A DNA stretch of 63,151 nt, the filler included, from Anaerolineae bacterium (GTDB lineage Bacteria; Chloroflexota; Anaerolineae; B4-G1; DUEL01), in assembly GCA_041082215.1 (NCBI GenBank). It is 8 parts of 8 records of this genome, joined end to end, with 100 filler letters (N's around TTAATTAATTAA, not from the genome) between each part and the next. Parts side by side here need not be neighbours in the genome. Positions count along the whole stretch, not along the records: positions 61,747 to 63,151 come from JBDOIF010000058.1; 7 more parts are not named here. One strand, given 5' to 3'. The position numbers and the translations under genes are program-made. Under the pieces are notes generated by a model that ran no database searches, had not been told where the DNA came from, and saw only the letters and a program-made list of their open reading frames with translations. This document shows, piece after piece, positions 61,647-63,151 of this stretch; position 1 is the first letter of the stretch, and each line of letters opens with the position of its first letter.

Positions 61647-61746
61647 NNNNNNNNNNNNNNNNNNNNNNNNNNNNNNNNNNNNNNNNNNNNTTAATTAATT
61701 AANNNNNNNNNNNNNNNNNNNNNNNNNNNNNNNNNNNNNNNNNNNN

Positions 61747-61881
61747 CAATGCAGGGGCGCGCGGCGGTGCGCCCAATGCAGGGGCGCGCGGCGGTGCGCC
61801 AAATGCAGGGGCGCACGGCAATGCACCCAATGCAGGGGCGCACGGCAGTGCGCCCAATGCAGGGGCGCGCGGCGGTGCGCC
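61747..61881 (+). repeat. Five tandem 27-bp REP-derived units, in frame within the aldolase gene
   Basis: CAATGCAGGGGCGC(G/A)CGGC(G/A)(G/A)TGC(G/A)CC x5, encoding NAGA(R/H)G(G/N/S)AP. Confidence 0.85.
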
Positions 61882-63085
61882 CCTGGTCATCGCCGGATGC
61901 GGGGCTTCCGGGACCCCCGAGGCGCTGGCCCTGGCCCGGGATGCCAGAGAGGCCGGCGCCGATGCCATCCTGGTCGTCACTCCCTACTTCCTCCACCCGT
62001 CCGACAAGGAGGTCTACCAGCATTTCTACGACATCGCCACACAGGTGGACATCCCCCTGATTCTCTACAACATCCCTCAGGTAGTGGACGCCGTTCTCCC
62101 CCGTGAGGTGGTCGAGGACCTGGCTGATTTGCCCAACGTGGTCGGCCTGAAGGACTCCTCCGGCAACCTGACCTACACGATGGAGATCCTGGAGTACGCC
62201 GGAGACCGGATTGACGTCCTCATCGGCCACGATGAGGTGGTGGTGCCGGCTTTGGCCGGTGGAGTGCGAGGGATGATCCTGGCCAGCGCCCAGGTCTACC
62301 CCGAGGTCTGGCAGGAGGTGCTGCGGCTGGTCGAGGAGGGCCGCCTGGCGGAGGCCCGCGCCCTCCAGCGGAAGGTGCAGAAGCTTTCCCGCATCTTCTG
62401 TCGCTATGGAGGCGGCGTGGCGGTCAAAGCGGCCCTCAACATGATGGGGATCCCCGTAGGGAACCCACGTCGCCCGCTCAAGGCGGTCGGCGGGGCGCTC
62501 ATCCACGAGACCCGGGCGGAGATCCAGCTGGAGCTGGAGCGGCTGGGCAAGATTCAGGTGGAGGAGGAGCCCTTCGAGTACCCGGGCGGCCCGCTGGAGG
62601 CCCGCTTCGGCGACCTGGAGCTGACGCCGGAGGTCATCCGCGCCTATCACCTCCGCGTCGGCAGCGGCGCGGCAGGGGAGGGGCTGAACCGGGTGCAGTT
62701 GGACCTGGTCGCCGGGCGGAAGGGGACGCCGCTGGGGGAGGCCTACGCGCTCCAGTTGACCTATCCCCTTCACGGCCGGGAGGCGCTGACCACGATCCTG
62801 GAGCCAGGGCTGACAGTCCGCCCGTCCACCCTGCTTCTTCCGACGCTGCCACAGAAGAACCTCCGGCAGGCCAATATGATCTACGGCCCCACTCAGTCGG
62901 CGCTGGCCCGGGCCATCGTGGACGCGCTGGAGGCGGGGGCGATCCCGGAGTCGGCGGTGGACGAAGAGGTGATGATCGTCCTGGCGACGGTCCATCCCAA
63001 GGCACTGGACCGGCGCGCGCTCTATCACAGCGTCTATGAGGCCGCCCGCGCCGCCATCGCCCAGGCTTTCGTAGCGCAAGATTGA
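61748..63085 (+). CDS. DapA/NAL-family class I aldolase fused to an Fae-like domain (5' truncated)
   Basis: LVIAGCG...GADAILVVTPYF, LYNIP, VGLKDSSG (Schiff-base Lys); C-terminal 62651-63082 aligns with formaldehyde-activating enzyme (RQANMIYGPTQ, GAIP, TVHP, YEAARAAI). Confidence 0.85.
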   Translation, partial: NAGARGGAPNAGARGGAPNAGAHGNAPNAGAHGSAPNAGARGGAPLVIAGCGASGTPEALALARDAREAGADAILVVTPYFLHPSDKEVYQHFYDIATQVDIPLILYNIPQVVDAVLPREVVEDLADLPNVVGLKDSSGNLTYTMEILEYAGDRIDVLIGHDEVVVPALAGGVRGMILASAQVYPEVWQEVLRLVEEGRLAEARALQRKVQKLSRIFCRYGGGVAVKAALNMMGIPVGNPRRPLKAVGGALIHETRAEIQLELERLGKIQVEEEPFEYPGGPLEARFGDLELTPEVIRAYHLRVGSGAAGEGLNRVQLDLVAGRKGTPLGEAYALQLTYPLHGREALTTILEPGLTVRPSTLLLPTLPQKNLRQANMIYGPTQSALARAIVDALEAGAIPESAVDEEVMIVLATVHPKALDRRALYHSVYEAARAAIAQAFVAQD

Positions 63086-63108
63086 TCTTGCGCTACAAGG
63101 AGGACTCT

Positions 63109-63151
63109 ATGGGCTATAAAACTGAGTGGTTCCGGGGCATCTATCCCGCGC
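63109..63151 (+). CDS. Start of a probable second DapA-family protein
   Basis: AAGGAGG RBS; MGYKTEWFRGIYPA matches the F.G..PAL.TP DapA N-terminus; only 14 codons visible. Confidence 0.55.
   Translation, partial: MGYKTEWFRGIYPA

Follow-up and report, generated by a model that had tools for sequence, protein, structure and literature searches.

A conserved pair of aldolase-Fae fusion genes in an Anaerolineae bacterium, an apparently undescribed variant of the Fae-aldolase theme

The formaldehyde-activating enzyme (Fae) is a homopentamer, the conserved His in its AH(I/V)DL motif has a catalytic role, and the only fusion of Fae known to us is Fae-Hps. For the Fae-Hps protein of methanogens, it was proposed that the fusion serves to capture at once the formaldehyde released by Hps (PMC5241800). 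Here we report on two adjacent genes of an Anaerolineae bacterium (GenBank assembly GCA_041082215.1, referred to as G000), found at the end of the window, that is, the whole stretch of 63,151 nucleotides of DNA that was analysed. Each gene encodes a class I aldolase barrel of the DHDPS/NAL (dihydrodipicolinate synthase/N-acetylneuraminate lyase) family with a Fae domain on its C-terminal side; gene 1 encodes subunit A and gene 2 encodes subunit B. The DHDPS-Fae fusion is real and conserved and is, as far as we can see, an undescribed variant of the Fae-aldolase theme, present as a pair of paralogous subunits, and a search of the full-text literature, with subscription journals and supplements outside its scope, found no description of it.

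The part of gene 1 at positions 61883-63085 (plus strand) is translated without a stop into 400 amino acids, in which Pfam recognized both domains: the DHDPS family (PF00701) at residues 2-202 (positions 61886-62488, plus strand; profile 73-274 of 289, E = 1.2e-50, 172.4 bits) and Fae (PF08714) at residues 259-396 (positions 62657-63070, plus strand; profile 1-138 of 159, E = 2.7e-32, 112.4 bits). This Fae domain is degenerate, and its last approximately 20 residues are gone. After a 23-nt spacer with a Shine-Dalgarno-like AAGGAGG (positions 63097-63103, plus strand), gene 2 starts at position 63109, runs on the plus strand to the end of the window (63151), and continues to position 2835 of contig C128 of this genome, encoding 490 amino acids. 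It also has both domains, DHDPS with E = 2.4e-71 and 240.3 bits, and Fae with E = 2.3e-30 and 106.2 bits (profile 1-158 of 159). The gathering scores of PF00701 (22.1 bits) and PF08714 (27 bits) were exceeded by both genes. The Fae domain of gene 2 has AHVDL and the full C-terminus with an RHPF tail, and it aligned with the solved Fae structure 1Y5Y over residues 6-166 (E = 3.7e-18). In both subunits, a linker of approximately 55 residues connects the barrel with the Fae domain. The two genes are 40% identical and are the sole Fae domains and the sole DHDPS-family genes of the genome. The original prediction for this locus, made from the sequence of the window alone, had proposed an aldolase fused to a Fae domain and a probable second DapA paralog downstream. 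The fusion and the assignment of its C-terminal domain to Fae were confirmed by these profile and structure matches; the downstream gene is indeed a paralog, but it is not a plain DapA, being a full-length DHDPS-Fae fusion in its own right.

Like Fae-Hps (NF009833; tetrahydromethanopterin (H4MPT) hydro-lyase/3-hexulose-6-phosphate synthase), the present proteins join Fae to a TIM-barrel aldolase-type enzyme, which in Fae-Hps releases or consumes formaldehyde. However, Fae is joined here to a DHDPS-family aldolase of class I (Schiff-base type) and not to Hps of the orotidine 5'-monophosphate (OMP)-decarboxylase fold, it forms the C-terminal and not the N-terminal part, the protein occurs as two paralogous subunits, one of them with a degenerate Fae domain, and most of the organisms that carry them have no H4MPT pathway. 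Both genes missed the NF009833 cut-off of 274 bits (95.1 and 78.9 bits, from the Fae part only), and no OMP-decarboxylase-type domain was found in either gene by Pfam. Compared with the Fae of Methylobacterium extorquens (1Y5Y/1Y60), subunit B aligned over residues 6-166 of 169 and shares AH(I/V)DL, the internal His and the C-terminal HPF; unlike this stand-alone enzyme, B is fused and occurs in H4MPT-free organisms, and neither the His nor the tail is present in subunit A. The barrels share with the DHDPS/NAL aldolases (DapA, NanA, YagE/2-keto-3-deoxygluconate (KDG) aldolase, MosA) the fold, the Schiff-base Lys, the Tyr, GTTGE and a predicted tight-dimer interface, and differ from them in the missing DHDPS Arg, the invariant YNIPQ signature and the C-terminal Fae domain. 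In an AF2 model of B (pLDDT 89.4, pTM 0.87), the barrel matched DHDPS structures with TMt of 0.94-0.95. As a separate observation on Fae structures, a chain in the Avd entries 8ub7-8ube of the PDB has residues 127-287 in common with Fae of M. extorquens, with the same alignment as 1Y5Y; this chain looks like an engineered fusion, so that not all of the Fae matches in the PDB are natural Fae.

The pair is not peculiar to this assembly. In a scan of species genomes, 508 relatives were confirmed among 632 pattern matches, and the locus counts given here refer to the best 80 of them together with the locus on C128 (81 loci). Both Pfam domains were also present in all of the 120 listed database homologues of gene 2 (71-91% identical), and the fusion recurs at the 80 further loci; thus, it is not a singleton misassembly. 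Where the listed homologues have a database name, it is "dihydrodipicolinate synthase family protein", "4-hydroxy-tetrahydrodipicolinate synthase" or "hypothetical protein", of which the second is probably wrong for the fusion. The best 80 loci are mainly from Anaerolineae and other Chloroflexota, with six from Thermoplasmata/Methanomassiliicoccales, six from Bathyarchaeia, and one each from Thermodesulfobacteriota and Spirochaetota. The A-type gene is located upstream of the B-type gene on the same strand in 62 of the 81 loci, with a gap of at most 60 nt in 40 of these, 61-400 nt in 12 and more than 400 nt in 10. The 18 A rows and the 24 B rows of a quick tree fell on opposite sides of one branch (SH-aLRT 99), and the branching order was alike in both clades, Bathyarchaeia followed by Thermoplasmata and then Chloroflexota, with the two remaining bacterial phyla nested inside. 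These mirror-image trees indicate that the duplication into A and B predates the spread of the genes and that the two moved together. The A/B pair is a conserved module of several anaerobic bacterial and archaeal groups.

Within its own phylum, the module is rare: among 301 genomes sampled, seven have a Fae domain, and three of those seven have the pair. In the same phylum, one Fae domain lies within a 382-amino-acid open frame (G200:C9:33492-33968), and in three further genomes it lies within open frames of 184-346 amino acids; thus, Fae architectures other than the pair exist in the phylum. Fae is a small family altogether (267 representatives with E of 0.001 or less in a 50%-identity library), and the matches listed from this library include seven full-length proteins of 467-500 amino acids with a C-terminal Fae domain, which we read as DapA-Fae from length and domain position alone. 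DNA nearly identical to the present locus occurs in hot-spring metagenome runs of four studies, and a 1712-nt DNA contig, from a study other than the probable source, extends from the end of gene 1 into gene 2. Contigs from a metatranscriptome library match both genes with 0-2 differences, which is no proof of transcription; this comparison used contigs only, and parts of the stretch that they leave uncovered carry no meaning either way.

Subunit A of G000 is divided between two contigs. The window consists of several contigs strung together through artificial linkers of N, and therefore genes on opposite sides of a linker are not genomic neighbours; contig C114, for its part, accounts for positions 17168-38268 only. 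The linker at positions 61647-61746 (no strand; N runs around TTAATTAATTAA) has DNA of another contig on its left, and the sequence from position 61747 to the end of the window is the beginning of contig C128 (76,923 bp), in which window position 61883 is position 137. This position had been taken as the start of the gene, which proved incorrect. Positions 61747-61882 (plus strand) consist of five copies of a 27-bp tandem repeat with a 9-residue unit, in frame with gene 1, and what follows at positions 61883-63085 is the last 400 codons of the gene and its stop. A genome-wide domain search revealed a third DHDPS match, over profile positions 2-68, at the extreme end of contig C78; there, an ATG at C78:101806 begins 74 codons of a DapA-type N-terminus including GTTGE, followed by the 9-residue repeat of C128, and the last bases of C78 are those found after the repeat in C128. 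Since the end of C78 supplies both the N-terminus and the repeat, gene 1 is a usual A-type gene of approximately 474 amino acids with an in-frame repeat insertion; it is whole in the genome and is divided by an assembly break inside the repeat. The insertion, of at least about 45 residues, is located in a surface loop of the barrel before the strand PLVIAG. Inserts at this loop, shorter and different, are also present in the A-type genes of two close relatives (L008 and L012), and the loop spacing is canonical in 132 of 134 open reading frames (ORFs); a genuine, lineage-specific insertion is therefore probable. The repeat units are unlike between the start of C128 and the end of C78 (L092, 14029-14154), and hence there may be more than five copies in the array, or it may differ among strains.

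The distribution of the catalytic residues was seen from an alignment of 42 sequences (24 of B and 18 of A). G48-T-T-G-E52, Y137, K166 (the Schiff-base Lys) and YNIPQ are invariant in all 42 sequences, and a G-H-D-E motif is invariant in both barrels. The Schiff-base Lys, which lines up with the GIKDATG Lys of DHDPS 3pud, is encoded in gene 1 at positions 62150-62152 (GLKDSSG, plus strand), and the Tyr of YNIPQ, equivalent to the catalytic Tyr of DHDPS, at positions 62066-62068 (plus strand). In DHDPS, the Arg after YNxP (Arg138 in E. coli numbering) binds aspartate semialdehyde. The YNVPGRTG of 3pud is aligned over YNIPQCAG in B, and A has YNIPQVVD, so that this Arg is replaced with Cys in B and with Val in A; the loop after YNIPQ contains W149-W150 in B versus R149 in A. 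The original prediction had correctly recognized the Lys of gene 1 and the lack of the Arg in its YNIPQVV, as well as the replacement of the Fae His by Gln (VQLDL, codon at positions 62696-62698, plus strand). This His is replaced in 55 of 64 A ORFs (by Gln in 46) and kept in the other nine, whereas all of the 69 B ORFs keep it and none replaces it; likewise, the RHPF-type tail is found in 65/69 B ORFs versus 2/64 A ORFs. Asp350, a VHP motif and the C-terminal H484-P485 are present in all 24 aligned B sequences, from Archaea and Bacteria alike. Judging from these motifs, the degenerate Fae domain of A is one half of a pair of which the B half is canonical. The earlier idea that the His-less Fae domain, as a channel, sensor or scaffold, would be the whole story is not supported in this form.

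A complex of the two subunits is supported by modelling. The prediction for the A/B pair of one genome gave a score of 0.69, and the best of three controls gave 0.00; a score of this height was attained by 116 of 157 solved complexes and two of 215 mismatched pairs, a calibration that is rough here since custom alignments were used. The runs agreed in at least 96% of contacts, with a partner pLDDT of at least 89, and the predicted interface is the classical tight-dimer surface of DHDPS together with the C-terminal tail of B. Because solved DHDPS homodimers exist, the score may mirror this likeness only, and the prediction cannot tell a heterodimer from homodimers; assembly of A and B into a hetero-oligomer is thus model-supported.

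Neither gene is a plain DHDPS, which for gene 1 agrees with the original prediction. The cut-off of the DapA equivalog TIGR00674 (206.15 bits) was missed by gene 1 (partial, 150.7 bits) and gene 2 (187.4 bits), as was every NCBIfam equivalog cut-off tried (dapA, nanA, KdgD, archaeal KDG aldolase and HpaI-type). DapB_C (PF05173) had no match in G000, which is 96.13% complete; in a control search, it was matched in 11 of 14 named genomes. One explanation of the pair could be that one of the proteins is the dihydrodipicolinate synthase of the organism, for lysine or diaminopimelate, with an added domain. In its favour, the best PDB matches are DHDPS enzymes, and the pair represents the sole DHDPS-family genes in G000, G002 and G015; two relatives without the pair have ordinary DapA-size genes of approximately 295 amino acids. 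However, with the aspartate-semialdehyde Arg replaced in both subunits, the dapA scores below the cut-off and no DapB_C in a nearly complete genome, this identity was rejected and appears extremely improbable. Similarly, the location of gene 1 at a contig end within a repeat might suggest an artefact of assembly or gene calling, but the 120 listed homologues, the 80 loci from other assemblies and the bridging 1712-nt contig leave such an explanation, also rejected, with a negligible probability.

As a tentative reading, to which we give somewhat less than an even chance, A/B may be a hetero-oligomeric aldolase that either releases or consumes formaldehyde, with the Fae domain of B coupling this step to a pterin. 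A and B would join through the DHDPS-type tight-dimer interface, and the aldolase would cleave or form a 4-hydroxy-2-oxo acid with formaldehyde as the aldehyde part, in the simplest case 4-hydroxy-2-oxobutanoate (HOB) from pyruvate and formaldehyde. The Fae domain of B would then hand formaldehyde to or from a tetrahydropterin, namely H4MPT in Bathyarchaeia and, in carriers without H4MPT such as G000, tetrahydrofolate. We infer these substrates and pterins by analogy: a coupling between aldolase and Fae is proposed because the Fae-Hps fusion is thought to capture released formaldehyde, and the comparison with Fae-Hps made in the original prediction is a reasonable one (PMC5241800). A review describes HOB as a non-native metabolite that, in the synthetic homoserine cycle, arises through a promiscuous aldolase (PMC8879981). 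The HOB step of that cycle, by promiscuous E. coli RhmA, is the same reaction of pyruvate with formaldehyde that A/B may carry out. Unlike A/B, RhmA is an unfused and different enzyme, a metal-dependent class II aldolase. A bolder version, which we consider improbable, is that A/B is a natural, dedicated HOB aldolase with a tetrahydrofolate-using Fae domain, interconverting pyruvate plus methylene-tetrahydrofolate and the keto acid of homoserine. In this version, combination of a dimer-forming barrel with a ring-forming Fae domain might also lead to a large A5B5-type or cage-like assembly.

Several observations weigh against the coupling of formaldehyde to a pterin. Mch (PF02289), a marker of the H4MPT pathway, is absent from all of the 16 non-Bathyarchaeial carriers, including G000 (96% complete), so that the H4MPT pathway, for whose genes the original prediction had suggested a search, is missing from them by this marker; Mch is present in five of six Bathyarchaeial carriers, and the remaining assembly is only 0.8 Mb. 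Outside Bathyarchaeia, any pterin partner would thus be tetrahydrofolate, and H4MPT, to our knowledge the only pterin with established Fae activity, is missing. Formaldehyde and tetrahydrofolate condense spontaneously, so that it is not obvious why an enzyme would be required. Serine hydroxymethyltransferase (two copies), FolD and homoserine dehydrogenase are encoded in G000; the genome thus already contains routes to one-carbon (C1) units and to homoserine, and the possibility that the pair is its only route to either was rejected. Both Fae domains score just below the cut-off of the Fae equivalog TIGR03126 (118.05 bits; 112.9 for gene 1 and 113.4 for gene 2). The G-H-D-E motif is similar to G-x-D-E, a motif found in sialic-acid and KDG aldolases, and its invariance could fit a substrate larger than C4. 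Furthermore, in the 81 loci, the pair has no conserved neighbour that encodes a transaminase or another pathway enzyme, and neighbouring genes for threonine synthase, S-adenosylhomocysteine hydrolase and a CysK-like protein are found in one Anaerolineales clade only. In the H4MPT-free carriers, the Fae domain of B either uses tetrahydrofolate or has another role; probably, the module arose where H4MPT was present and later moved to folate-only organisms, with the Fae motifs of B staying intact.

Some of these observations would also be expected if A/B were an aldolase for a larger 2-keto-3-deoxy or 4-hydroxy-2-oxo acid of the sugar-acid type, with Fae only as an oligomerisation or regulatory module and no formaldehyde chemistry. 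The lack of Mch outside Bathyarchaeia, the loss of the His and the tail from the Fae domain of A, and the G-H-D-E motif of both barrels are in line with such an enzyme, and transaldolase/fructose-6-phosphate aldolase and an unassigned TIM-barrel protein are among the neighbours in subsets of the loci. However, a pure scaffold would have no need of the His, Asp350, VHP and H484-P485 that B retains throughout, and the matches to the Fae model of Pfam reach 106-112 bits; we regard this possibility as unlikely, though deserving attention. Alternatively, the Fae domain of B could be catalytic on another aldehyde or carrier, for example another small aldehyde with tetrahydrofolate or an amine cofactor, outside formaldehyde metabolism. 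This would account for the retention of the Fae catalytic motif where H4MPT is absent, and W149-W150 in B versus R149 in A, within the specificity loop, suggests two different ligands. Nevertheless, nothing in the data points to a specific alternative, and we know of no Fae-family member for another aldehyde; such a role seems quite unlikely.

Apart from the pair, no gene family is shared by more than 15 of the 81 loci. A family of 316 amino acids (c5), without a Pfam or NCBIfam match, is located directly upstream of the pair in eight loci and one gene farther in a ninth (L040, 5170-6120; L049, 5582-6523; and seven other loci). In G000, a c5 gene with 72% identity is found away from the pair, on the minus strand of contig C100 (71838-72812; L087, 9836-10813), where it adjoins genes for class I fumarate hydratase subunits. 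The mean column identity of c5 is 76% across Chloroflexota and Thermoplasmata. It is present in 21 of the 301 genomes of the phylum, many of them without any Fae domain, and thus is not strictly coupled to the pair. In the Atlas, c5 gave a weak pointer to U32-like clusters, in which 17-23% of members have that Pfam family. Its AF2 model (pLDDT 78) is a generic TIM barrel of no clear family: class II aldolases ranked first, tied with many barrel families (Foldseek TMt about 0.5), and in VIA the model gave Z 15.2 with a root-mean-square deviation of 3.7 and 218 aligned, with rows down to Z 12.4. A second, very conserved family of approximately 425 amino acids (c7) is located beside the pair in ten loci of Anaerolineae and Bathyarchaeia (L057, 5282-6550; L083, 6500-7783, minus strand; and eight other loci). 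It had no Pfam or NCBIfam match and no usable Atlas match, and it was not found in G000 with the query used. The profiles of c5 and c7 aligned weakly (hhalign probability 16.6%). In the region of C100 that contains the c5 gene (L087, corresponding to C100:62000-80000), a gene with DUF5981, the C-terminal domain of methylene-tetrahydrofolate reductase, was observed between those for an HdrD-like CCG/4Fe-4S protein and an HdrA-like flavoprotein (L087, 12359-18000); this may be a folate-linked electron-bifurcating reductase cluster.

Both natural and engineered C1 assimilation centre on formaldehyde-linked aldolases. With Fae fused a second time, independently, to an aldolase of a different class, the design principle of Fae-Hps would be seen to recur, and here the fusion module has moved between Archaea and Bacteria as two subunits. 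A/B could supply a natural enzyme for the reaction of pyruvate with formaldehyde, for which synthetic methylotrophy now borrows promiscuous enzymes (PMC8879981). The pair also raises the question of what role a well-conserved Fae active site has in organisms without tetrahydromethanopterin. If A/B is in fact a dedicated HOB aldolase, it would include the first Fae working with tetrahydrofolate and would be a natural counterpart of the engineered homoserine-cycle/HOB route, and the module would have come from Bathyarchaeia and reached H4MPT-free anaerobes through gene transfer.

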